NCBI GenBank assembly: GCA_029259795.1
Contig: JAJDEM010000044.1
Span: 1 to 41,920, forward strand
Reading direction: 5' to 3'
Source of the DNA: Planctomycetota bacterium
GTDB taxonomy: Bacteria; Planctomycetota; PLA2; JAEUHO01
DNA length: 41,920 nt
A program made the translations under genes and the position numbers. The notes below the pieces were generated by a model that made no database searches, was not told the DNA's origin, and was given only the letters and a program-made list of their open reading frames with translations. Every line of letters begins with the position of its first letter. Within the stretch, counting starts at the first letter, position 1. This document shows positions 3 to 27,552 of the stretch, piece after piece.

Positions 3-1655
3 AACGCATTCGCCGGCACGGGCAAGGTCGAGGAGAGCGCCCGGCACCTGAAGCTCGCGCGCGCGAAGGCGCAGACGATCGACGACGAGAACTTCGGCCT
101 CGCACTCAACGACACAGCGATCGAGATCGCCCATCGGGCAGGACGACACGCAGACGCCGTCACAGCAGCCCTGCTGGCCGCAGACGCCCTGCAGCGCAGC
201 TACAGGCAGCTCGCGGACGACGAGCAGGCGGGTGCCCGGGAGCGCTGGGCACGCGGGTTGACGCGTGGCGTCCTCTCCGCGGCCAAGCTGGGTCGGGCAG
301 ACGACGCGTTCCAGCTCATCGAGCTGAACCGCGCCGGCGCCTTGCGCCGCGCGCTCGGCGGGACGGATCGTGTGTACGGCGCGCTGCTCGATCCCGCACT
401 CCGAGCCGAGGAGGCTGAAGCGCGTGCGCAGGAAACCTCCGCGGTGGACCGCCTGCGCGCGGCCCGCGGCGGCGATCTCTCGGCCAAACAGCTGAAGGCC
501 CTTGAAGGGGAGCTGCGCGCCGCACGGGAGCGCCTCCACGATCTGGACCGCCGCGTTCAGCGCGGCGCGGCAAGCGCCCGCGACGTCACCGCGCCTACGC
601 TGCCGACCCTCGCTGAGGTCCAGAAGGACATGGCGGCCGACGAGGCGCACGTCCTCTACTCCATGGCGGGCGAGGCGGCTGTCGCCGTCGTCGTCACCAA
701 GAAGACCAAGCGCGTCGTCGAGCTCGGCCCCAGCGCCATCCTTCGTGATCTCTGCGAGGACCTCCTTGTGGACTACGAGGGGACCATCGACCGAGAACGG
801 CTCATCGAGCTGGTTCAGCTCGTGGTGATGCCGCTGCGGCTCAAGAACACGCTGCGCCGCGTGCGTGTCTCCCCCAGCGGTCCCCTCGGCTACGTGCCGT
901 TCTCCTTGCTGTTTCCCGGGCACGAAGTCGTCCTGGTTCCTTCGGCCGCTACCTATGCGCTGCTGGCGGAGCCGTCGGCGAAGGGAACCGCCCGCGTCCT
1001 CGCGCTCGGCGACCCTCTCTATGCCGAGAAGGGTGAAGCCAGCGTGCTGCGCGGAGCACGCGCCGGGCGGAGCCTGACCCGACTCCCGGCGACCAAGGCC
1101 GAGGCCGAAGCCATCGGGGACGATGTGTTGCTGGGCGCAGGCGCCACCGAGGCTGCCCTGCGCAAGACCCTCGGCACGCAAGCCCACTGGCGCGCCGTCC
1201 ATCTGGCCTGCCACGGCCTGGTGGATCCTGAGCGGCCGATGTTCTGCTCCCTGGCGCTGACCCCGGGCGACGGCGACGACGGCTTCCTGACGGTACTCGA
1301 GGTCATGCGCCTCAAGGTCCCGGCCGACCTCGTCGTGCTCTCGGCGTGTGAGACGGGTCGCGGCCGCGTCGTCGCTGGCGAGGGCATTCTCGGACTGACG
1401 CGAGCCTTCATGCTGGCGGGCGCGCCGCGCGTGCTCGTGAGCCTTTGGCAGGTCGACGATGAAGCGACCCGCATGCTCATGGAGCACTTCTACACGGTGT
1501 GGAAGGCTGGGTCCGTGGGTCCGGCCGAGGCACTCGTGAAGGCACAGAATCACGTGCGCACCTACAAGCAGCCTGGCAAGGCCGGTGGTGCGAGCAAGCA
1601 GCCGTACAAGGACCCGCGTTTCTGGGCGGGCTGGGCCCTCTGGGGCCTGCGCTAG
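3..1655 (+). CDS. CHAT-domain (caspase/HetF-like) protein, 5'-truncated by the window edge
   Basis: The frame is open from position 3 (NAFAGTGKVEESARHL...) into ORF 258..1655. CHAT motifs: AVHLACHG (catalytic His), DGFLT, LVVLSACETG (catalytic Cys), VSLWQVDDEAT, PRFWAGWALWG. Confidence 0.92.
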   Translation, partial: NAFAGTGKVEESARHLKLARAKAQTIDDENFGLALNDTAIEIAHRAGRHADAVTAALLAADALQRSYRQLADDEQAGARERWARGLTRGVLSAAKLGRADDAFQLIELNRAGALRRALGGTDRVYGALLDPALRAEEAEARAQETSAVDRLRAARGGDLSAKQLKALEGELRAARERLHDLDRRVQRGAASARDVTAPTLPTLAEVQKDMAADEAHVLYSMAGEAAVAVVVTKKTKRVVELGPSAILRDLCEDLLVDYEGTIDRERLIELVQLVVMPLRLKNTLRRVRVSPSGPLGYVPFSLLFPGHEVVLVPSAATYALLAEPSAKGTARVLALGDPLYAEKGEASVLRGARAGRSLTRLPATKAEAEAIGDDVLLGAGATEAALRKTLGTQAHWRAVHLACHGLVDPERPMFCSLALTPGDGDDGFLTVLEVMRLKVPADLVVLSACETGRGRVVAGEGILGLTRAFMLAGAPRVLVSLWQVDDEATRMLMEHFYTVWKAGSVGPAEALVKAQNHVRTYKQPGKAGGASKQPYKDPRFWAGWALWGLR

Positions 1656-14976: not shown

Positions 14977-17900
14977 TCAGCCGAGCAGAAGTTCCAGATC
15001 CGCGCGCGTGATCCCGCGCAGCGGCGCATCGTTCACCCCGCCGAGAACGGCTTGGACCAGCTCGCGCTTGCGCGCCTGCAGCTGAAGGACGCGATCCTCC
15101 ACGGTGTCCTCACCGATCAGGCGGTAGACGGTGACCGGGTTCTGCTGCCCCATGCGGTGGGCCCGGCCCACGGCCTGTGCCTCGACAGCGGGGTTCCACC
15201 AGGGGTCGAGAATGAAGACGTACTGCGCGGCCGTCAGGTTGAGCCCGGTACCACCGGCCTTGAGGCTGATCAGGAACGTCGTGACATCCGGATCTTCCTG
15301 GAACCGATCGATGCTCTCGCCCCGCTTGGTCGTCTTGCCGTCGAGGTACTCGTAGCGGATGCTCAGCTCGTCGAGCCGGTCGCGAACGATCGCGAGGAAC
15401 GACGTGAACTGCGAGAAGACCAGCGCCTTGTGCCCGGCGTCGGCGATCTCCTCGAGCATGGGCAGCAGCAACTCGAGCTTGGCCGCCGTCTCGGAGACAC
15501 GCTGCTTGTCGATGAGCCCGGGGTGGCAGGCCGCCTGACGCAGCCTGAGCAGGGCCTCGAGGACGTGCATCTTGGACTTGCCAAGGCCCGAGTTGTCGAC
15601 CTTGCTCAGCACGCTCGCGCGATAGTGCTCGCGGATGCCGTCATAGGCCTGGCGCTGCTCGGGCTGGAGCGCGCAGCGCAAGACCTGCTCCTCGAGCTCG
15701 GGCAGCTCGGTGAGGACCTGCTCGCGGGTCCGTCGCAGGATCACGGGGCGCAACGCGGCTTGCAGCCACGCGATGCGCTCCAGGGAGGGCTTGCCGGTGC
15801 TGCCGAGCAAGGCCTGGAACTCCCGCTTCGTTCCGAGCAAGCCCGGATTGAGGAACGCGAACAAGGAGCCGAGCTCTTCAAGGTGGTTCTCGATCGGCGT
15901 GCCCGAGAGGGCGAGCCTGTGCTTGGCGTCGAGCTGCCGCGCGGCCCGGGCGGTCTTGCTCGTTGCGTTCTTGATGGCCTGGGATTCGTCGAGCACCGCG
16001 TAGTCGAGCGGGATGTCGGCGAGGATCTTGATGTCGCGGCGCATCGTGCCGTAGGTCGTGACGATCAGATCGAGCTTGCTGACATCCTTCAGGGTGTCGG
16101 CCCGGCTCGGCCCGTGATAGCTCGCAACCCTGAGGGCGGGCGCGAAGCGCTCGGCCTCACGAACCCAGTTCGACATGACCGAGCGCGGCGCGACGACGAG
16201 GCTCGGCCCGCGCCGGTCCTTTGCCCGGCGCCGCGGCAACAGGCAGGCAAGAACCTGCACCGTCTTGCCAAGGCCCATGTCATCAGCAAGGCAGCCGCCC
16301 AGGCCCGCCTCGCGCAGGAACGCAAGCCAGCCCAACGCCTCGCGCTGGTAGTCGCGCAGCGTGCCTTCGAAGCTCTTGCTCTCGCGGCGCGCGCGTACGC
16401 CCTTGAAGCCAGCGAGCGTCTCGCGGAGCGCCTCGAAGTCGGCGTCGACCTGCACGTTGGCGAGGTCGTCGAGCAGTATGTCGAGCAGCGGGGCCCGGGC
16501 CCGCGCAACGCGTAGATTCTCCCCCGCCACGGGTGTGGCGGAGAGGGCGCCGAGCGCCTCGAGCCTGGAGATCCACTCCGGCGGTAGCAGGGCCGCTCCG
16601 CCGCCCGCGAGTTCGACGAAGCCGCGACCAGCCCGCACGGCCTGCAGGATGGCGGGCAACGGCAACGCCTCCTGATCGAAGGTCACCTCGCCATCGATGT
16701 CGAACCAGTCGATGCCAGAGCTGACGCGCACGGCCAAGGACCCACCGGACTTCACCGCGCGGCTCTCGACGCGCACGGCCCAGCCCGCTTCGATGAGTCG
16801 CGTGCAGCGCCGTGCAAGGTCTTCGACCGGCATGAGGTAGGGACGCTCGGCCCAGGCGGGGCCGCTCCGGATGCAGCCTTGCTCCGTGAGGGAGGCGAGC
16901 AGGGCCCCTTCGCCTTCGTCGTTGCGCCGCAAGATCCTCGGGATGTCTTCCCGCGTCGTCAGGTAGCGGCTCGGGTCCGCGGCCGAGACGAGCACGTCTC
17001 CGTAGGTGAAGGTCACCGTGCCTTCGGCATGCGGCCCCGGCGGCAGCGAGAGGTCCAGCGAACCGAGGGGCGCCTCGCTCGGCTCCGCCAGCTCACCCAA
17101 CTCGAGCGGGACGCCCCGGGCGACGCTCATCAGGGACTCGAGGAATGCGCCGACGTCTTCGCCGCGGACCTGCATCGCGCCGTCCTCACGCAGGTTGCTG
17201 ACCCAGTCCGAGGCACCGGCGTCGTCGAACGGGCCGACGCCGTCATCGAGAATGGCGATCCCGCCGGGCAGGAGCAGCTGGGCCGCTTCGAGCGGTCGGC
17301 GATCCTCGCCACACACGAGTTCGGCCTCGAGTGAGACGGCGCGCGGATCGGCCGGATCCCCCGCGGGTCTGAGGTTCAGCTCGAAGCGCCACGGGGTCGT
17401 CGACCAGGTCAGCGGCCCACGCCAGTCCCCATCCGCGCCGCGGCAGTAGACCGGCACGATCCCCTGCACGGACTCAAGCGCCCGCGCGGCGTCACGGGGG
17501 GGCACATGGATCCTCGACTGCTCGTTCCAGCGCCAACCAAAGGCCTTGTCGTCGCCGACCTTCGCGATGCGGTAGAGCGCCAGCCGGACGTCCTTGGACA
17601 TCGTGCGGTACTTCTCGAGGGTCGACCACTTCGCCTCGGAGGCCTCGCCGTAGCCACCGCCCTTGCGCGCCTGCTTGCGGGTCAGCGAGAGCACGAGCCC
17701 ACTGTGGGTGACGCACTCGCGCGGGTCGATCCAGAGCTCGAAGAGCTGGGAGCGCGCGCCTTCGCGCCCGACGATCTCCTCCTGGCGGCGGAGGGCCCCC
17801 TGCTCGAGATGGGCAAAGCGCATGCGCCACGACGGCGCCCGACCGCTGGTCAGCCCGCCCGCAGCGGCGGGATCCGCGAGGGAGGTCAGTTGCTCGCCGG

Positions 17901-18207
17901 CCCGAAAGGCGCGGATGGCGGCCGCAGCGTGGCCCTTGGCATCGGCGAGGCAGGCAAACGCCACCGCGTGCTTGCACATCCCCTCGTAGCTCCACGCCGG
18001 GCAGGTGCAGTCGGCCACGAGGCCACTCTCGCCGTATTGCAGCTCGACGTCGTAGCCTTCCGTACCGACCACCACGGCCCGTAGATGGCCGCTGGCGGTC
18101 AACTGAACGCCTCGGACCCGGCCCTCCCGGAAGTAGGTGATCCCGCGCGCGATGGTGCGCTCTTGGGCGTGTTCCTTGCAGAGACGGAGATAGGGGTCAG
18201 CAGACAT
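14977..18207 (-). CDS. SWIM zinc-finger SNF2-family helicase/ATPase
   Basis: SWIM motif CTCP...CKH; helicase motifs LADDMGLGKT, DESQ, LSGTP, LVFSQF, SLKAGGTGLNL, QAVGRAHRMGQ. Confidence 0.95.
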   Translation of the reverse strand: MSADPYLRLCKEHAQERTIARGITYFREGRVRGVQLTASGHLRAVVVGTEGYDVELQYGESGLVADCTCPAWSYEGMCKHAVAFACLADAKGHAAAAIRAFRAGEQLTSLADPAAAGGLTSGRAPSWRMRFAHLEQGALRRQEEIVGREGARSQLFELWIDPRECVTHSGLVLSLTRKQARKGGGYGEASEAKWSTLEKYRTMSKDVRLALYRIAKVGDDKAFGWRWNEQSRIHVPPRDAARALESVQGIVPVYCRGADGDWRGPLTWSTTPWRFELNLRPAGDPADPRAVSLEAELVCGEDRRPLEAAQLLLPGGIAILDDGVGPFDDAGASDWVSNLREDGAMQVRGEDVGAFLESLMSVARGVPLELGELAEPSEAPLGSLDLSLPPGPHAEGTVTFTYGDVLVSAADPSRYLTTREDIPRILRRNDEGEGALLASLTEQGCIRSGPAWAERPYLMPVEDLARRCTRLIEAGWAVRVESRAVKSGGSLAVRVSSGIDWFDIDGEVTFDQEALPLPAILQAVRAGRGFVELAGGGAALLPPEWISRLEALGALSATPVAGENLRVARARAPLLDILLDDLANVQVDADFEALRETLAGFKGVRARRESKSFEGTLRDYQREALGWLAFLREAGLGGCLADDMGLGKTVQVLACLLPRRRAKDRRGPSLVVAPRSVMSNWVREAERFAPALRVASYHGPSRADTLKDVSKLDLIVTTYGTMRRDIKILADIPLDYAVLDESQAIKNATSKTARAARQLDAKHRLALSGTPIENHLEELGSLFAFLNPGLLGTKREFQALLGSTGKPSLERIAWLQAALRPVILRRTREQVLTELPELEEQVLRCALQPEQRQAYDGIREHYRASVLSKVDNSGLGKSKMHVLEALLRLRQAACHPGLIDKQRVSETAAKLELLLPMLEEIADAGHKALVFSQFTSFLAIVRDRLDELSIRYEYLDGKTTKRGESIDRFQEDPDVTTFLISLKAGGTGLNLTAAQYVFILDPWWNPAVEAQAVGRAHRMGQQNPVTVYRLIGEDTVEDRVLQLQARKRELVQAVLGGVNDAPLRGITRADLELLLG

Positions 18208-20881: not shown

Positions 20882-23869
20882 CTACACCGCGCCCCAGAAG
20901 ATCCAGCCGGCCCAGTAGTAGGGCGCTGCCCAATGCGCCTTGCCATGCTTGTCCTTGTGAGTCCGCACGACCTCCTGGGCCTCGCGGAGCGCGTCGTGCA
21001 ATGAGCGACCCTTGCTACGCTCGGTGTAGAAGGCCGTCATGAGTACGGACGTCGCCTTGTCATCGGCAGGCCAGAGACTCGTGAGCAGTCTCGGGCAACC
21101 CGCGGCCATGGCGGCGCGGACGAACCCGAGCAGGCCTACGCCGTCGCGATGCTGAGCGCGACCGACGTCGCAAGCCGACACGACCGTCAGATGGGCGCGC
21201 AGCTTGAGCGCGAACAGCTCGCTGGCGGTAAGAAACCCGTCGTCCTCGTCGGTCGGTGACAATGCCACGCAGGTCAGGCCGGGCGTTCCGTCGTCGACGA
21301 TGCCATGGCAGCCAAGGTGAACAACGTCCCAGACCTCGTCGGTGGCGAGTTGTCGTTTCAACTCCGTCTCCGAAGCCGCCGCGCGCAGAAGGCGAATGCC
21401 CTTTTGCCCGATGAGCTTGCTGCTTTCAGCGCCGCTGTGCTCCAAGCGCGGGAGATACCTGGAACCGGGCGCCCAGGGGACGGTGCGGCCGCCGACGGCC
21501 TTCTCGTAGAGAGGGTCGCCCATGGCGAGCGAGCGCCCGCCCTTCTCGGGACGCAAGGTCCGCGCCTGAAGAAGCGAGGTCGCCGAGGGCACTACGGTGA
21601 TGTCAAGCCGCGCTGCGCGTGCGACCGGAAGGCTCGACCACGGAACGACCGTCAGGGGTCCGGCCGGGCTCACGTAGAGGCGGCGGATCGAGGCAGGAAG
21701 TGCCAGATCTTGGATCAGACGCTGCTCGATGACGGCGATTGGACGCTCATACTGCTCGCGTGTCATGTCGCCGACCGAGCGCTGAAGCGTCTCACATGCG
21801 GCCTCGACCTCTGGCCACTTCTTGAGTACCGGAGTCCGCGCGCCAGCCTTGGTAACCACCAGCACGCTCGCAGCCCCGGCGTGCACGTCGTAGAGTGCGA
21901 TGGCCTCGTCGGAAGCAAGCGCCTTGCGTACGGTCTTCAACACCGCCGCCTTCGGGTAGGCGAGCGCAGCCCGGGAGCCCGCCTGTCTCTGGATGCTCGT
22001 GATCACATCCAGGAAGGCCGTTTGCGCGGCATCCTTGGCCGCACGCGCATCAGCGACTCGCTTGTCCCGAAGGCTGCGTCCGAACCGGCTGTGCAACAAC
22101 AGGTAGCGCTCACGCGCAGCCACAAGCACACGCTGGGCCTTTCGCTCGCGGGCCCGTAGCTCTGGCTTCAGATCCAAGCCTCGCGCAAGGTGGCTGCCGC
22201 CCATGGCGCGAACCAGCAGGCGAGCCCGGCCCGCTTCGTAGGCTTCGAACTCAAGCGCCCTGTCGTTCGATGCCCGAGCAGCGCGCCCCCAGACGCGGAA
22301 GATCCGCGCGCGCTCGCGCTCCGACCGGACGCTGATGTCTTCCTCATCCGCAAGGCCCAAAGTGGACTCGTCCATGAGCGCCATCGCCGCCTTGGCCTGC
22401 TTGACCGCCGCGACAGGCCTACCCGCTTCGAGCTCAAGCTCCGCCAACCGGCCGTGGATCGAGGCTCCCAGGTCCAGGATCTCTTGCGCTTCGGTAACGA
22501 GGCGAGCCGCGTCGAGGCGAGCCCGCGCAGGCTTCCACTCTCCCAGGCCGATATGCGCAACTGCCGCCGTGAAGTGCGCCCAGGCGGCATCCTTGGTTCC
22601 CGCCGGCAGCATGGCGAGGCCCTGGGTCGCGTCGGTGAGCGCCGCCCGCCAATCCGCGCGCTCCACATGCAGCGCGAGCGCCCGATACATGTGCAGCCAG
22701 CCTACGAACTCGGGCTCGTTCATCTTCTGGAACGCAACCCGCGCGTCCTCAAGGCTGCTTGCAGCCGCCTTGAAGTCACCCGTCGCCGCGAAGGCCAGCC
22801 CCAAGTTTGCCCGCAGCGTGGCGTCGAATGTCGGGTCCAGCTGGCCGCTCTTCAAGAGGTGGCCGCCTCGCTTGATGGCACTGGTGTATCGGCCCATGTC
22901 GATGAGCAACGACACCAGCGTGTAGCCGGCATTCCTCTGCGTGACGGCGGCATCCACTGCATCTTCCTCGGCCACCCCTTCTGACGCGGCGGCCCGGCCC
23001 GCCTCGACAGCGGCACGTTCGCAGGTCGAGAGCGCCTCTGCATAGCGCCCCAGGTGACCGAGTGCGGTTGCCAGGTGCACCCGCGCCGCTGCCGCCTGCG
23101 CCAAGGGTCCATGTTCGTCGAAGTGCGAGATGACACGGCGCAGACTCGTCACTGCGCCTCGAGGAGAACCCTCCCTCAGCGCGAGGAACGCGTCGAAGCG
23201 ATCGACATGCCGCTCCTCCGCTACGACCTGCATCGCCTTGGCAACGAGGCGCAGGTCACGGAGCGTGGCTCGGGCATCTCCGAAGCGCGCCTCGTCCTTA
23301 AGGATGAAGAACCGGCCATGCAAGGCCACCGCCTGGCCTCGCAGCCAACCCAACTCACGGGCCACGCGCTCCATATCGCTGTAGGACGCGAGCGCATCCT
23401 CGAGCTTGCCGAGCGCAGTTGAGGACTCTGCGATGGCGTGGCTGCGCATCCAACCGAGCACGCTTGGGGCGGCGGGCGGGCGGGCTGCCAGAAGCCCTAG
23501 GACTCCCTCATGGTCACCCGCAGCAAGAACGTCGATCGCCTCAACGATGGCGCGCCGAAGCAGCGGCTGCGCTTGGGACGGGGCGCGAGCGTAGCGCAGA
23601 AGGCCATCGCGATCTGGTTGGCGTAAAGCACCGGCATAGGTAACCGCAGCCCGTGTGAACCCATCTGCGAGCAGCCGATCGACGATTTGCCATGGCACTA
23701 CGGCAGGCGGCGACGCCAGGCGACGAAGTGTGGCGTCGTCGCCTTCGCGAGCAGCCTTCAGGGTGCTTGCGAACAGCTCCGCATGGACGTCCGCGTCACC
23801 AGATGCGACGGGCGCTCCCCAGCCCAGGCCAAGGATCAGGATCCACGGCCCAAGGCGAAGAGCACGCAT
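20882..23869 (-). CDS. Signal-peptide TPR-CHAT (caspase-like) protease
   Basis: Hydrophobic N-terminus; TPR-like repeats (LGRYAEAL, MGRYTSAI, TGDFKAAA, LGEWKPAR); VVHLGCHG, DGFLTASE, VVSACDVG, TSLWPADD, PYYWAGWIFWG. Confidence 0.9.
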   Translation of the reverse strand: MRALRLGPWILILGLGWGAPVASGDADVHAELFASTLKAAREGDDATLRRLASPPAVVPWQIVDRLLADGFTRAAVTYAGALRQPDRDGLLRYARAPSQAQPLLRRAIVEAIDVLAAGDHEGVLGLLAARPPAAPSVLGWMRSHAIAESSTALGKLEDALASYSDMERVARELGWLRGQAVALHGRFFILKDEARFGDARATLRDLRLVAKAMQVVAEERHVDRFDAFLALREGSPRGAVTSLRRVISHFDEHGPLAQAAAARVHLATALGHLGRYAEALSTCERAAVEAGRAAASEGVAEEDAVDAAVTQRNAGYTLVSLLIDMGRYTSAIKRGGHLLKSGQLDPTFDATLRANLGLAFAATGDFKAAASSLEDARVAFQKMNEPEFVGWLHMYRALALHVERADWRAALTDATQGLAMLPAGTKDAAWAHFTAAVAHIGLGEWKPARARLDAARLVTEAQEILDLGASIHGRLAELELEAGRPVAAVKQAKAAMALMDESTLGLADEEDISVRSERERARIFRVWGRAARASNDRALEFEAYEAGRARLLVRAMGGSHLARGLDLKPELRARERKAQRVLVAARERYLLLHSRFGRSLRDKRVADARAAKDAAQTAFLDVITSIQRQAGSRAALAYPKAAVLKTVRKALASDEAIALYDVHAGAASVLVVTKAGARTPVLKKWPEVEAACETLQRSVGDMTREQYERPIAVIEQRLIQDLALPASIRRLYVSPAGPLTVVPWSSLPVARAARLDITVVPSATSLLQARTLRPEKGGRSLAMGDPLYEKAVGGRTVPWAPGSRYLPRLEHSGAESSKLIGQKGIRLLRAAASETELKRQLATDEVWDVVHLGCHGIVDDGTPGLTCVALSPTDEDDGFLTASELFALKLRAHLTVVSACDVGRAQHRDGVGLLGFVRAAMAAGCPRLLTSLWPADDKATSVLMTAFYTERSKGRSLHDALREAQEVVRTHKDKHGKAHWAAPYYWAGWIFWGAV

Positions 23870-23891
23870 TACCCGTGGTATCCGCCGGCCC

Positions 23892-24596
23892 CTACGGCTT
23901 GGCCGCTGAGGTCGCCAGGATACCGGTGGCGTGCGAAGTTGTGGTTCCGTGGGGATCGTCTGACCACACCTTGTTCACGGGATCCCATGTGAAGTAGATG
24001 ATGTCGTACTCGATCCAGTAATCGAAGTTGGAGCCGTTCGGCTTGACCTTCAGCTCCATGAGTACTTCTGCGATGTGCTTGTTGTAGGCCGGCGCCGGCA
24101 GATCAATCACGAACGACGGAATCACCGTCATCTTGAGCGTGGGCGTCTCGGCGAGGGCCAGATTGCTGAAGACAAGGCTCGGATGGATGTAGCCCGGCGT
24201 GTACGCGACATACTCGTAACCCGCATCGCCCGAGTGCCCGCTGCCCAAGGCGCCGGGGCTGTTGCCATTGGGGATGCGCTGCGGGAACGGCCCGATGGGG
24301 GCTGTATTCACGACCGGGCTGCCGTGCAACCCACGACTTCCTGCGCCGTAGAGGTACGGCTTTACGTCCCGCGCCGAGCGGTTCTTGAGGCGAACGACCT
24401 TGGCCGTCGGTCCGCTGCCCGAGTCTTTGAAGTAGTCTCCGATGCTCCCGAGAGGCCCTCCACCGTCATCCTTGGGCTTGCAGCAATCATCGCCGATGCA
24501 GGCAGAGCCAAGCAAGGCGAGGGCCGGTAGGAGCAGAAGGGCTAGCAGGCCTCTCCTGCTCAACTCAGGTCGATACCAACGGCGTGCAGTCCTCAT
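23892..24596 (-). CDS. Hypothetical lipoprotein (possible Tat substrate)
   Basis: GGAGGA SD and ATG at 24596; SRRGLL twin-arginine-like motif, hydrophobic stretch and lipobox LGSA-C. Confidence 0.7.
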   Translation of the reverse strand: MRTARRWYRPELSRRGLLALLLLPALALLGSACIGDDCCKPKDDGGGPLGSIGDYFKDSGSGPTAKVVRLKNRSARDVKPYLYGAGSRGLHGSPVVNTAPIGPFPQRIPNGNSPGALGSGHSGDAGYEYVAYTPGYIHPSLVFSNLALAETPTLKMTVIPSFVIDLPAPAYNKHIAEVLMELKVKPNGSNFDYWIEYDIIYFTWDPVNKVWSDDPHGTTTSHATGILATSAAKP

Positions 24597-24626
24597 GCGC
24601 AGTCCTCCATGGGACCCCAATCCCCT

Positions 24627-26027
24627 CTACGGGACAGGATCCAGGTTGTTTCCCCAGTTCGCAAAGAGCCTGAGATTCTTCCTGATGACCCTTGCGTTGT
24701 TTGCCGTCCCCACCTCGCCGACCGCGACGCCCGCAGAGTCCCCCTCCGGGTCCGTCTTGTTGGGGTTGCTGAAGACACGTTCCAGCACGCAGCTCGCGTT
24801 CTCCGAAGCCTTCCCCATCAGGGTGCAGCGGCGCTGTGACACAAAGTAGGACCCGCCAGTAATCCAGTCGGTCACCTCGACCTGGGCGAAGTACACGAAG
24901 CCGTGACCGTAGGCATCCCGCGGATTGTCCGGATCCGTGTTGTGTTGGCAAGCGAAGTTGTGGGCGACCTCGTGTGCCAAGGCGACGCCCCCCTCCATGT
25001 TGAGCCAACTCGTAATACTGTAGGCGCGCTCCGCGAAGTACCCATCGCCGGACTTCCAGATCTCCCCCTCGCCGAGATCGTTCATCCGGCTCCGAGCAAC
25101 GAGGACCGTCACGACGTCGGCCTTCTGGTCATAGCGAGTCCTGCGGAGGTCCTCGACAGCCTGGACGTCGGCCAGCAGGTCGACGTCGGAGGCGCCGTTC
25201 TCGTCCATGTCGACCAGCACGAAGCCCGTGACGCAGATCATGGTCGAGACCCCGCTCCGGCGCAACGCGTCGTTGAAGGCGCAGACGGCCGTGCCCGTTC
25301 GCGCGCGAATGATCGCCTCGTCGGAGTTGACGTCTGCAAGAACGTCGTTGGTGTAGCCCACCAACAGTTCGATCCGCGATCCGTCTTCGCTATTGTCCCG
25401 CTTCTTCCAGCGGCTGAGCGGTGGCCGCATGGGGCGCGGCGGACGCGGCGGGAGATCGGGTGGCGGGGGCAGGTCCAGCGGTTGGCGCGCGGCAGCCTTG
25501 CCTCCCAGCCGCACCCGCGGCATGTCCCGCCTAAGGTAGAGAACGCCACCCTGGTAGGGCAGCGTCGTCGCTGTGTACTCCAGAATCCGACCGCGGTAGA
25601 ACACGACCAGGTGCGAGGTGAATCGCTTGGCCTGCTTGAACTCGCCCTCCCAAGTGAAGGACATGAACGCTTGATACGAGCCCTGGTTGGCTGGGCTGGA
25701 GTATGCGATGACGCGCGGCATGCACCGACACGTCAACTTCATATGGATCGAGACGTCGTGCAGCTCGGGAAGGTCGACGCTGGCCCAGATGCTGGGCGCA
25801 CCGATGGAGCCGGTGATGCTCCGCCGGTTGAACCGTGCGAGGCCAAGCCTCTCACCCTTGCGTCCCAGGGCATAGCCACGCATGTGCCGCATGCGCTTGT
25901 GGGTCATGTGTCCATCGGGAAGCGCCTGGAAGACCTCAATCGGATGGGCCTCGTCAGCGTGGGCAGCCACGGTGTCGAGGCACAGCAGGATCGCAGGGAC
26001 AAGCCATCCAATGACGCGCACATGCAT
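24627..26027 (-). CDS. Secreted reprolysin-like (M12) zinc metalloprotease, paralog B
   Basis: Signal peptide ending AHA-DE; IELLVGYT, ADVVTVL, HEVAHNFACQH, YGHGF, Met-turn TLMG, FSNP. Confidence 0.85.
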   Translation of the reverse strand: MHVRVIGWLVPAILLCLDTVAAHADEAHPIEVFQALPDGHMTHKRMRHMRGYALGRKGERLGLARFNRRSITGSIGAPSIWASVDLPELHDVSIHMKLTCRCMPRVIAYSSPANQGSYQAFMSFTWEGEFKQAKRFTSHLVVFYRGRILEYTATTLPYQGGVLYLRRDMPRVRLGGKAAARQPLDLPPPPDLPPRPPRPMRPPLSRWKKRDNSEDGSRIELLVGYTNDVLADVNSDEAIIRARTGTAVCAFNDALRRSGVSTMICVTGFVLVDMDENGASDVDLLADVQAVEDLRRTRYDQKADVVTVLVARSRMNDLGEGEIWKSGDGYFAERAYSITSWLNMEGGVALAHEVAHNFACQHNTDPDNPRDAYGHGFVYFAQVEVTDWITGGSYFVSQRRCTLMGKASENASCVLERVFSNPNKTDPEGDSAGVAVGEVGTANNARVIRKNLRLFANWGNNLDPVP

Positions 26028-26169
26028 GAGGCGAGTGCTCCAATCCGCGGCCCATTGAACGCCAATGAACACCGAAAAATCAAGCCCACGGGCACCTTGG
26101 AGGCCCGTCGTGGCCTAACAAGCGAGTTGTGCGGCCAACCATGTCGATCAGGCGTCGGGTGGACACGGG

Positions 26170-27552
26170 TCAGGGCACGCGCCGGAGGCCGTTGCCCCAG
26201 TTTGCGAAGGTCCGAAGCCCTTCGCGGATGGCGCGCGCGTTGTCACGTCGCTCAGCGACACCCGTCGGCTGCGCTCCCTCGCCCTGCTCAGGCTCAGAGA
26301 CCAGCGGCGAACTGAACACAGGCACCGGCTTGCATGACCCGTTGGCCGGCGGCTTCCCAAGGATCGTGCAACTCGGCTGGTCGACCAGTTTCGGCCTGTC
26401 ATCACCCCAGACCACAGTCTTCTTCCTCCAGACGAAGAAGTGGCCGTGACTCCACGGGCTCCTGGGGCGGCATGGATCCAGATTGTGCTGGCATCCGAAG
26501 TTGTGGGCGACCTCATGCGCCAGCGCAAAGCCCCCGTCCAGATACAACCAACTCGTGATGCTGTAGGCGCGCTCGGCGAAATCGTCGTCTTCCGCCTTCC
26601 GGATCTCGGCCTCGCCCCAGTCGTTCGAACGCCGGCGGGCGACCAGCACGGAGACCGCATCGGCCCGCAGACGCCTCCGCTCGCGCCGAAGCGCGGCTAC
26701 ACCCTGAACGCGTGACAGCAACTCGGGATCACTTGCCGTGCCTTCTTCGAACTGACTCAACGCCATGAAGTCGAGGACGCAGATCTTTGTGGGAACACGG
26801 CTCCGACGCAACGCCTCGTTGAAGAAACAGACGGCGTTGGCGACCCGCGCCACAATGCGAGTTTCGTCGGATCCCGCAGCGAGCGAAACCTGGCGCGTGT
26901 AACCAATCAGCAGATCGATGCGTGTTCCGTCGTCTCGTTGTTTGCGCCGCATGTCAGGCGGCCGCCTGCGGGTGAGACGAGCGGGCAGGCATGGCGTCGA
27001 GCGCTTGCTCGCGAGCTTCGCGCTGGCAAGTGAGAGTGGCGCGTCCCGCCACACGTAGAGGACGTCGTCCCTGTAGGCATGCGGCGTAGCCATGTATTCG
27101 CGGAGGCGGCCGCGGTGGAAGACGACCAGGTTCGTCGTGTACTTCCGGGCCAGCCCCTTCCCCGGCCGGAGAACGAAGGACATGAACGCGCGGGGCTCGC
27201 CGGGCTTGCCAACACTCGCGTAGCTGATCGCACCGCGCACGCAGCGGCATCCCCGGACGAAGCGCAAGACGCGGGACTCGTCATCGGCGAGTTCGAGCCG
27301 GATCGTCAGCCGCGGCTTGCCGATCATGGGCCCCAACTGCCCCCAGTCCACAAACGCCAGGCCGAGCGTCTCCCTGGAGCGCCCTGTTCGAAAGCCGCTC
27401 CTCACAAGCATCTGATCGTCAGTCCAATCCAGCTTGGGCAGGGAGGAGACGGCCGTCATGCCGGCGTTGTCGTCAGCGCGGACCACAGTGGGGTCGACAA
27501 AGAGCGCGAGGAGCGCCGCGAGCAGGACGAGAGAGAGGAAACGCACTGCCAT
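26170..27552 (-). CDS. Secreted reprolysin-like (M12) zinc metalloprotease, paralog A
   Basis: Signal peptide MAVRFLSLVLLAALL...VRA-DD; IDLLIGYT, ADAVSVL, HEVAHNFGCQH, WSHGH, TILG, FSSP. Confidence 0.85.
   Translation of the reverse strand: MAVRFLSLVLLAALLALFVDPTVVRADDNAGMTAVSSLPKLDWTDDQMLVRSGFRTGRSRETLGLAFVDWGQLGPMIGKPRLTIRLELADDESRVLRFVRGCRCVRGAISYASVGKPGEPRAFMSFVLRPGKGLARKYTTNLVVFHRGRLREYMATPHAYRDDVLYVWRDAPLSLASAKLASKRSTPCLPARLTRRRPPDMRRKQRDDGTRIDLLIGYTRQVSLAAGSDETRIVARVANAVCFFNEALRRSRVPTKICVLDFMALSQFEEGTASDPELLSRVQGVAALRRERRRLRADAVSVLVARRRSNDWGEAEIRKAEDDDFAERAYSITSWLYLDGGFALAHEVAHNFGCQHNLDPCRPRSPWSHGHFFVWRKKTVVWGDDRPKLVDQPSCTILGKPPANGSCKPVPVFSSPLVSEPEQGEGAQPTGVAERRDNARAIREGLRTFANWGNGLRRVP

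Follow-up and report, generated by a model that had tools for sequence, protein, structure and literature searches.

A candidate extracytoplasmic protease module that pairs a rare lipoprotein family with exported TPR-CHAT proteases in a planctomycetal lineage

Introduction

Caspase-like CHAT proteases are triggered switches inside bacterial cells, and DdvA is, to our knowledge, the only characterized CHAT protease outside the cytoplasm. In this study, we analyzed a cassette of four neighboring genes for two zinc proteases (META and METB), a small lipoprotein (LIPO) and a TPR-CHAT cysteine protease, located on contig JAJDEM010000044.1 of an uncultured Planctomycetota bacterium. The window, meaning the whole stretch of DNA that was analyzed, is this entire 41.9-kb contig. 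It belongs to a metagenome-assembled genome (G000) of 4.29 Mb, which is 89% complete and has a G+C content of 68%.

Four described systems come close to this cassette. DdvA is a periplasmic TPR-CHAT protein for which self-cleavage of a membrane-proximal linker was proposed, and it shows that such a protein can gate a sigma factor of the extracytoplasmic function (ECF) type (PMC11506125). In the type III-B CRISPR system of Haliangium, the CHAT protease of SAVED-CHAT cleaves and activates a second protease, PCaspase, which is encoded adjacent to it (bioRxiv 10.1101/2023.06.23.546230). The secreted metzincin Mep72 of Pseudomonas aeruginosa is co-transcribed with the small adjacent gene bamI, and BamI binds Mep72 and relieves its toxicity in E. 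coli (PMC4334185). In the staphylococcal cascade, extracellular proteases of mixed classes (aureolysin, SspA and SspB) activate each other sequentially, some of them being encoded together with a small third gene in the sspABC operon (PMC3454333). We found no paper describing a module with the composition of the cassette, in line with a preliminary description of this DNA, which knew of no such system. Our analysis suggests that the cassette represents a recurrent, lineage-restricted extracytoplasmic module, a reading to which we assign a probability of about 0.5.

Results

Recurrence of the LIPO-CHAT pair

The cassette consists of four neighboring, co-directional genes with gaps of 142, 30 and 22 nt, and the coordinates agree with the layout given in the preliminary description.

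26170..27552, minus strand: META, 460 aa (translation)
24627..26027, minus strand: METB, 466 aa (translation, motifs)
23892..24596, minus strand: LIPO, 234 aa (translation, homologues)
20882..23869, minus strand: TPR-CHAT protein, 995 aa (Pfam CHAT match)

Among 40 genomes of the order, we detected seven LIPO-family genes at six loci, in five genomes of five genera. At all six loci, a gene for an exported TPR-CHAT protein adjoins the LIPO-family gene. A second exported protease is adjacent at five of the six, and is an M12B-like protease, another HExxH zincin or a C11 clostripain-like protease. All real LIPO matches, in these 40 genomes and in a phylum sample of 401 genomes, fell into one bacterial family (f1). 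The preliminary description had proposed a conserved neighborhood of CHAT, M12 and lipoprotein genes and had named a lack of this linkage in other genomes as grounds for giving up the proposal. The linkage was seen across the five genera; the LIPO-CHAT part of the neighborhood was constant, whereas the M12 part was variable and had no counterpart in genome G006. Thus, the constant pair is lipoprotein plus CHAT and not metzincin plus CHAT.

TPR-CHAT genes are very common in these genomes, and therefore adjacency to a CHAT gene alone is weak evidence. The neighbors of LIPO are informative because the LIPO family is rare. The density of CHAT genes is approximately one per 170-250 kb. As a control, we inspected 24 loci with weak hits, and none of them had a CHAT gene within 1.5 kb.

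The arrangement of the genes differs among the loci. LIPO and CHAT are co-directional with CHAT downstream in G000 and G006, LIPO is convergent to CHAT at the G010, G022 and G017:C31 loci, and LIPO lies between two CHAT genes at G017:C24. The G006 lipoprotein (contig C50) was matched by profile A3, which was built blind to gene context (E 5e-5; hhalign probability 90%). The next gene downstream of it, in the same direction, encodes the full-length protein most similar to the cassette CHAT, and the genes upstream of this locus look like housekeeping genes by eye. At G010:C9, an M12B protease above the Pfam cut-offs of Reprolysin_3/4/5 is followed 43 nt later by a lipoprotein with a Cys-Cys pair and then by a convergent TPR-CHAT gene. 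The G022:C125 and G017:C31 loci were reached through weak profile matches. The lipoprotein of G022:C125 contains CCCPCPDRCC, poly-Gly and FKRLRLVN, and that of G017:C31 carries TRIRFLNKSDRKVK. A widened profile, used on sequence alone, found a second copy at G017:C31 (E 2e-6) and the copy at G017:C24 (E 6e-7). Three members (G006, G017:C24 and the second G017:C31 copy) were thus found by sequence before their neighbors were inspected.

In G022, the second protease is encoded divergently and is a secreted member of the C11 clostripain family (35.9 bits; cut-off 25.8). That of G017:C31 is a secreted protein with HELGHALLHGH and LTIMV, and that of G017:C24 contains HEFGHMLGNCD. The G017 zincin P0018 was considered as a member of the META/METB family and was rejected, as hhalign against alignment A2 matched the motif only, with a probability of 1%. 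A CHAT homologue in G015 was rejected as a module locus since no LIPO-like gene lies upstream of it. An all-against-all BLAST of the neighbors at seven loci gave CHAT, metzincin and LIPO as the only recurrent components, and a further conserved component was dropped as a candidate. A gene for a VKOR-DsbA fusion, a protein of disulfide formation, lies just upstream of the Cys-rich G017:C31 module (L099, 9533-10915, minus strand).

LIPO and its family

On the minus strand, LIPO starts with an SRRGLL n-region. A lipobox-like LLGSAC (24498-24515), a Cys-Cys pair (from 24485) and a Gly-rich linker come next, and the motif KVVRLKN (24381-24401) precedes a beta-rich C-terminal domain. The consensus motif for the twin-arginine translocation (Tat) pathway is S/T-R-R-x-F-L-K. 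LIPO, labeled a Tat-lipoprotein in the preliminary description, has a Tat-like SRRGLLA and matched no NCBIfam model at E ≤ 0.01, and the relatives examined by eye have no RR. The lipobox rule at the end of the signal peptide is given as [LVI][ASTVI][GAS]C (PMC12462473). LLGSAC has Gly at position −3, and the relatives have LLGSC, LSLGAC, LLAAC, LLGAC and LTGC.

No Pfam or NCBIfam family was matched by LIPO (NCBIfam at E ≤ 0.01), and a word-indexed search of 5.8 billion proteins found LIPO itself only. Three remote homologues (P0012-P0014) were detected when 1.84 billion representatives were searched in full with HMMER. The preliminary description called LIPO an orphan; this holds with respect to the family databases, whereas the three homologues give it a small family. 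LIPO and these homologues share an anchor, often a Cys-Cys pair, a Gly-rich linker, the motif K(V/R)VR(I/L/V)KN and further motifs. Over the whole family, the traits are an anchor, often Cys-Cys, a flexible Gly/Pro-rich linker, [KR]x[VIL]R[FLIV]xN and a C-terminal domain of ~150 aa. A scan of metagenome contigs with profile A3 found no relative, and a search of the ESM Atlas returned generic "lipoprotein" clusters alone (at most 0.82). A match of profile A5 in G407, outside f1, was rejected as a signal-region match in a TPR lipoprotein.

An AlphaFold2 model of LIPO from eight aligned rows was all-beta, with a predicted local distance difference test score (pLDDT) of 53.7 and a predicted template modeling score of 0.50. 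Foldseek with this weak model against the PDB gave no match at E ≤ 0.001, inhibitors included. Complex prediction for CHAT residues 205-995 with LIPO residues 34-234 gave no answer (score 0.00), which is no evidence either way. META and METB both end in VP (26170-26175 and 24627-24632), and LIPO ends in KP (23892-23897). The C-terminal residue is Pro in 7 of 10 LIPO-family proteins, including the relatives P0012 and P0014-P0017. The terminal Pro of the metzincins and the LIPO family could be a sorting or processing signal.

The exported TPR-CHAT protease and its paralogues

The cassette CHAT protein matched Pfam PF12770 over residues 714-993 with 161.4 bits (cut-off 24; E 4.1e-47). Two motifs contain the residues that we take to be the catalytic dyad of the CHAT family.

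21302..21319, minus strand: catalytic His motif HLGCHG (His855); C854 and H855 invariant in alignment A6
21167..21181, minus strand: catalytic Cys motif VSACD (Cys900); A899 and C900 invariant in alignment A6

His855 (GCHG) and Cys900 (SACD) are invariant among the seven LIPO-adjacent CHAT proteins, all of which also keep a signal-like N-terminus. TPR families scored 17-21 bits in the cassette protein, all under the Pfam cut-offs, and the paralogues at G017:C24 have strong TPR_12/TPR_1 matches. The closest homologue is that of G006:C50 (37% identity over the full length, E 1.5e-158). A phmmer search of the PDB found no similar solved CHAT structure and gave only a spurious PPR match. No SAVED domain was found in the Pfam scan of the cassette proteins, and no family of the PADLOC-DB v2 defence models was matched by any of the four at E ≤ 0.001.

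N-termini resembling signal peptides are present in all four cassette proteins, judged by eye and with a crude hydrophobicity rule, in agreement with the export signals assigned in the preliminary description. By the same crude rule, 10 of 14 CHAT proteins of G000 with a complete N-terminus look exported, compared with 65 of 175 control genes. Having an export signal is therefore a property of the CHAT paralogues here as an entire family. PF12770 occurs at 24-25 loci in G000, 35 in G006 and 20 in G010. From a reading of the gene calls, the neighbors of the other G000 paralogues are heterogeneous. A second CHAT gene fragment is present in the window (3-1655, plus strand), where it overruns the contig start; it is 37% identical to residues 440-993 of the cassette CHAT.

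We built a quick maximum-likelihood tree of 44 CHAT domains from the G000 paralogues, 18 G010 paralogues, the LIPO-adjacent CHAT proteins and the G015 homologue; high-scoring segment pairs that spanned fewer than 200 residues of the query were excluded, as were further paralogues from G006, G017 and G022. Five of the seven LIPO-adjacent CHAT proteins fell within one group of six, with a support of 87 in the Shimodaira-Hasegawa-like approximate likelihood ratio test (SH-aLRT), and those of G000 and G006 were sisters (SH-aLRT 99). The label of LIPO adjacency required 4 changes on the tree against a mean of 6.6 after shuffling, and 2 of 500 shuffles were as low. The G010:C6 CHAT protein grouped with the LIPO-linked ones. 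A gene for a 182-aa membrane-anchored protein lies directly upstream of it, at the position equivalent to LIPO (L135, 10204-10752, minus strand). This protein was rejected as a LIPO member because no relation to LIPO was detectable.

Several CHAT paralogues are located within a few kb of Sigma70_r2 genes (G000:C265, 10112-15369; G000:C38, 3539-7340; G010:C4, 284549-288388; G010:C5, 468391-472204). These sigma-linked paralogues are a class distinct from the lipoprotein-linked CHAT proteins. None of the 40 Sigma70_r2 matches in G000 is on the 41.9-kb contig, the closest match in G010 is ~220 kb from the module, and there is none on G022:C125. In G006, the closest is at least 20 kb from the module among the matches listed (150 of 270, G017 included). 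No Pfam anti-sigma factor domain was found in the scanned neighbors.

The zinc proteases META and METB

META and METB are paralogues with 43-44% identity. META is composed of a predicted signal peptide, a beta-rich N-terminal domain of ~190 aa, a basic Pro/Arg-rich linker and a catalytic domain. This N-terminal domain, which occurs in META and METB alone, could be a prodomain. A conserved C-R-C is present in this domain of both proteins (27238-27252 and 25719-25733, minus strand) and absent from the G010 homologue; it is possibly a cysteine-switch-like prodomain feature. The motifs of the catalytic domains are as follows.

26485..26517, minus strand: META zinc-binding motif HEVAHNFGCQH (HExxHxxGxxH), residues 346-356; columns invariant in alignments A1 and A2
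26356..26370, minus strand: META candidate Met-turn position CTILG (alignment A2)
24942..24974, minus strand: METB zinc motif HEVAHNFACQH (translation)
24813..24827, minus strand: METB Met-turn-like CTLMG (alignment)

The Met-turn column was taken from alignment A2, not from a structure; it contains Met in METB and in the G010 homologue and Leu in META. META scored 20.2 bits with Reprolysin_3 (cut-off 22.4), and META and METB scored 18.4 and 18 bits with Reprolysin_5 (cut-off 27), in each case below the cut-off. The profile of A2, which comprises META, METB and the G010 homologue, matched solved adamalysin-type proteinases with E 3e-5. Judging from these sequence features, META and METB appear to be adamalysin-like (M12B-type) zinc proteases. 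The assignment of two metzincins and one TPR-CHAT protease in the preliminary description fits these observations. Partial matches to the NCBIfam Mep72 model (NF052434 equivalog) were also obtained, with E 2e-8 for META and 9e-10 for METB, at model positions 2-223 of 573. META and METB are not Mep72 orthologues because they score 33.2 and 37.7 bits against an equivalog cut-off of 645.

Relatives of the two metzincins are scarce. Among 60 related genomes there was one weak match, in G010, and G000 has no further metzincin of this family. Matches in GTDB contigs had 24-32% identity where they were longer, and the others were short and covered the motif only. The metagenome contig scan with the metzincin profile A1 found no relative, and the set of 5.8 billion proteins contained an identical fragment and one weak match. 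In the phylum sample, matches restricted to the catalytic domain occurred in 27 of 401 genomes, and no CHAT gene was found within 1.5 kb of these catalytic-domain loci elsewhere in the phylum (L030-L057). An AlphaFold2 model of META from a three-row alignment had a pLDDT of 32, and the fold could not be modeled.

Assembly, base composition and transcription of the cassette

Logan contigs of run X1, which is probably from the same sample, span all three junctions of the cassette with no differences. The G+C content at third codon positions (GC3) is 0.77-0.82 in the cassette genes and 0.82-0.88 in the flanking genes. The lower GC3 noticed by eye in the preliminary description is therefore real, although it is only mild: the values correspond to the 19th-36th percentile of the long open reading frames of G000 and are not anomalous. 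Horizontal transfer was dropped as an explanation on this ground. An SNF2-family helicase of 1076 aa, with a SWIM zinc finger at its N-terminus, is encoded 2.7 kb from the cassette (14977-18207, minus strand); no link between the two was seen.

The spacing of METB, LIPO and CHAT, at 30 and 22 nt, is compatible with a shared transcript. The 142-nt gap between META and METB contains a hairpin and a U-run.

26079..26119, minus strand: GC-rich hairpin of 41 nt (minimum free energy fold) in the META-METB gap, followed by the U-run UUUU(U) at 26074-26078

META may be transcribed separately from METB, LIPO and CHAT because of this hairpin and U-run, which could be a terminator or an attenuator. The fold of the gap was no more stable than that of shuffled sequences (z −0.32), and the hairpin was not listed by a consensus terminator scan. 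A scan for sigma-70-type promoters found none upstream of META and a single match inside METB. The sequencing runs listed with the locus are three DNA runs of one study, with no RNA run among them.

Discussion

Interpretation and rival explanations

The four genes probably work together, outside the cytoplasm, because the module recurs in related uncultured bacteria. We recognize three parts in it. The first is a small, beta-rich protein of the LIPO family with a predicted lipid or membrane anchor. The second is a TPR-CHAT cysteine protease that is predicted to be exported and retains both residues of its catalytic dyad. The third is a variable second protease, predicted to be exported and represented here by a tandem adamalysin-like pair with a possible prodomain. 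That these three parts form a functional unit is fairly probable. A specific mechanism can be proposed by analogy, though tentatively. LIPO would be the membrane-tethered partner of CHAT; it may serve as a substrate, with the cut in the flexible linker, or as a securin-like inhibitor, following the self-cleavage that is proposed for DdvA at its membrane-proximal linker. The second protease would be coupled to the LIPO-CHAT pair, as its activator or as the protease that it activates, which would make a switch, operated by proteolysis, at the outer side of the membrane. The preliminary description had proposed that the metalloproteases and the lipoprotein are activators, substrates or effectors of the CHAT protease in envelope signalling, defence or predation, a proposal that the recurrent linkage partly supports. 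In its most extended form, which we consider unlikely, the proposal would be a caspase-like cascade outside the cytoplasm, in which a CHAT protease that is checked by LIPO or acts on it is triggered at the surface and activates interchangeable pro-proteases (zinc or C11) as effectors.

Several observations weigh against the module reading. The G006 locus has no metzincin and no recognizable second protease. Three lipoproteins (G010 P0009, G022 P0016 and G017 P0017) were accepted after their neighbors had been seen. They scored weakly at first (hhalign probability 15%, E 0.014 and E 0.74, respectively) and afterwards became part of profile A5. The second proteases P0018 and P0020 were recognized by motifs and had no Pfam match, and P0020 has no signal peptide at its called start. 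In G023, no CHAT gene lies within ~7 kb of a borderline relative (E 0.029). The flanks of the control loci covered 1.5 kb only, and tblastn overlooked a real CHAT N-terminus in L125. The tree was a quick search, and the support of its key fork (SH-aLRT 87) is not strong. The cassette was not found in five genomes of the same genus that are 70-92% complete. Leu at the Met-turn position of META and Ala in place of the motif Gly in METB raise doubts about catalysis. Finally, the orientation of LIPO and CHAT varies between loci, so co-transcription cannot be general.

A different division of labor would make LIPO a membrane-anchored inhibitor or immunity lipoprotein that shields the envelope of the producer, while the proteases act independently in feeding, biofilm remodeling or competition and no cascade exists. 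The pair of Mep72 and BamI (PMC4334185) is a precedent for a small adjacent protein of this kind, and META and METB have partial Mep72 matches (E 1e-9 to 2e-8). LIPO lies directly downstream of a zinc protease gene, on the same strand, in G000, G010 and G017:C31, and the sspABC operon provides a protease-plus-partner layout in a characterized extracellular cascade (PMC3454333). However, the unchanging partner of LIPO is CHAT, at six of six loci. The second protease is a zinc or a C11 cysteine enzyme, or is missing as in G006, and such switching and absence are hard to fit to one active-site-directed inhibitor family. The weak LIPO model also had no match among solved structures at the threshold used, inhibitors included, and the Mep72 scores are far under the family cut-off of 645 bits. 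We regard this explanation as rather doubtful.

The clusters might instead reflect chance or loose clustering of numerous genes for CHAT and secreted proteases, with the common layout of G000 and G006 being synteny by common descent. PF12770 is indeed abundant (25, 35 and 20 in G000, G006 and G010), the neighbors of the other G000 CHAT genes are heterogeneous, G000 has no other metzincin of the META/METB family, the CHAT homologue of G015 stands without LIPO, and the catalytic-domain relatives of the metzincins in the phylum (L030-L057) have no CHAT gene within 1.5 kb. Nevertheless, by arithmetic from the counts, the regions at most 1.5 kb from CHAT genes add up to only ~3-4% of the genome, whereas a CHAT neighbor was present at 6/6 LIPO loci and at 0/24 control loci. 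The flanking genes and the orientation vary between loci and some of the CHAT proteins are not sisters, so that simple inherited synteny cannot explain all loci, and chance is a quite improbable explanation. Equally, we think it very unlikely that LIPO, CHAT and the second protease serve as the periplasmic part of a divided DdvA/DdvS-like switch, with a sigma/anti-sigma or kinase partner at another genomic site. DdvA (PMC11506125) makes such gating conceivable, and other CHAT paralogues of G000 and G010 lie within a few kb of Sigma70_r2 genes; the lipoprotein-linked loci, however, are far from any listed Sigma70_r2 match in G010 (~220 kb) and G006 (at least 20 kb, 150 of 270 matches listed), have none on the G000 contig (0/40) or on G022:C125, and show no Pfam anti-sigma domain in the scanned neighbors.

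Comparison with known systems

As characterized zinc proteases, the adamalysins/reprolysins (M12B) share with META and METB the HExxHxxGxxH motif, with Ala for the Gly in METB, and a candidate turn of the C-x-x-M type, in addition to the match of profile A2 at E 3e-5. META and METB differ in their Pfam scores, which are under the cut-offs, in the private N-terminal domain with CxC and in the Leu at the Met-turn of META.

SspC of the staphylococcal operon is a cytoplasmic inhibitor. The staphylococcal cascade resembles the cassette in its extracellular proteases of mixed classes, in part encoded together with a small third gene. Its families are M4, S1 and C47, and it has no CHAT protease and no lipoprotein. 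Mep72 and BamI likewise combine a secreted metzincin with a small adjacent protein, which binds the protease and neutralizes its toxicity. In that operon, bamI is located upstream of mep72, whereas LIPO is downstream of the metzincin genes, and the mep72 operon has no CHAT gene. META and METB, unlike Mep72, show no carbohydrate-binding modules in the Pfam scan.

SAVED-CHAT is similar in that the genes of a CHAT protease and a second protease are neighbors, and an inhibitor is part of that set. It works in the cytoplasm, responds to cyclic oligoadenylate and belongs to a CRISPR locus, whereas the cassette has predicted export signals, no SAVED domain and no PADLOC match. If the cascade outlined above were true, it would be to the cell surface what SAVED-CHAT with PCaspase, and Craspase, are as switches in the cytoplasm. 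Its roles may then lie in defence of the envelope, in interactions with kin or prey, or in the remodeling of biofilms, in a lineage with 20-35 exported CHAT paralogues per genome. The module also draws attention to a bacterial family whose set of exported CHAT proteases is unusually large, and it establishes a new, rare lipoprotein family whose sole known common feature is its CHAT neighbor.

Both DdvA and, as predicted, the cassette have an extracytoplasmic TPR-CHAT protein with a His-Cys dyad and a flexible membrane-proximal linker as the proposed cleavage site. Compared with DdvA, the cassette CHAT is a free exported protein with a predicted cleavable signal and has neither a zinc anti-sigma domain nor a transmembrane helix. 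The membrane tether in the cassette is a separate lipoprotein, a second protease is added, and no ECF sigma gene is near. With no Sigma70_r2 match on its contig, near the G010 module or on G022:C125, the cassette is not a DdvA/DdvS-type unit. The module separates the protease, its candidate tethered partner and the candidate downstream proteases onto small genes, and because the parts are on separate genes, what an exported CHAT protease cuts or unleashes is directly testable with purified proteins.

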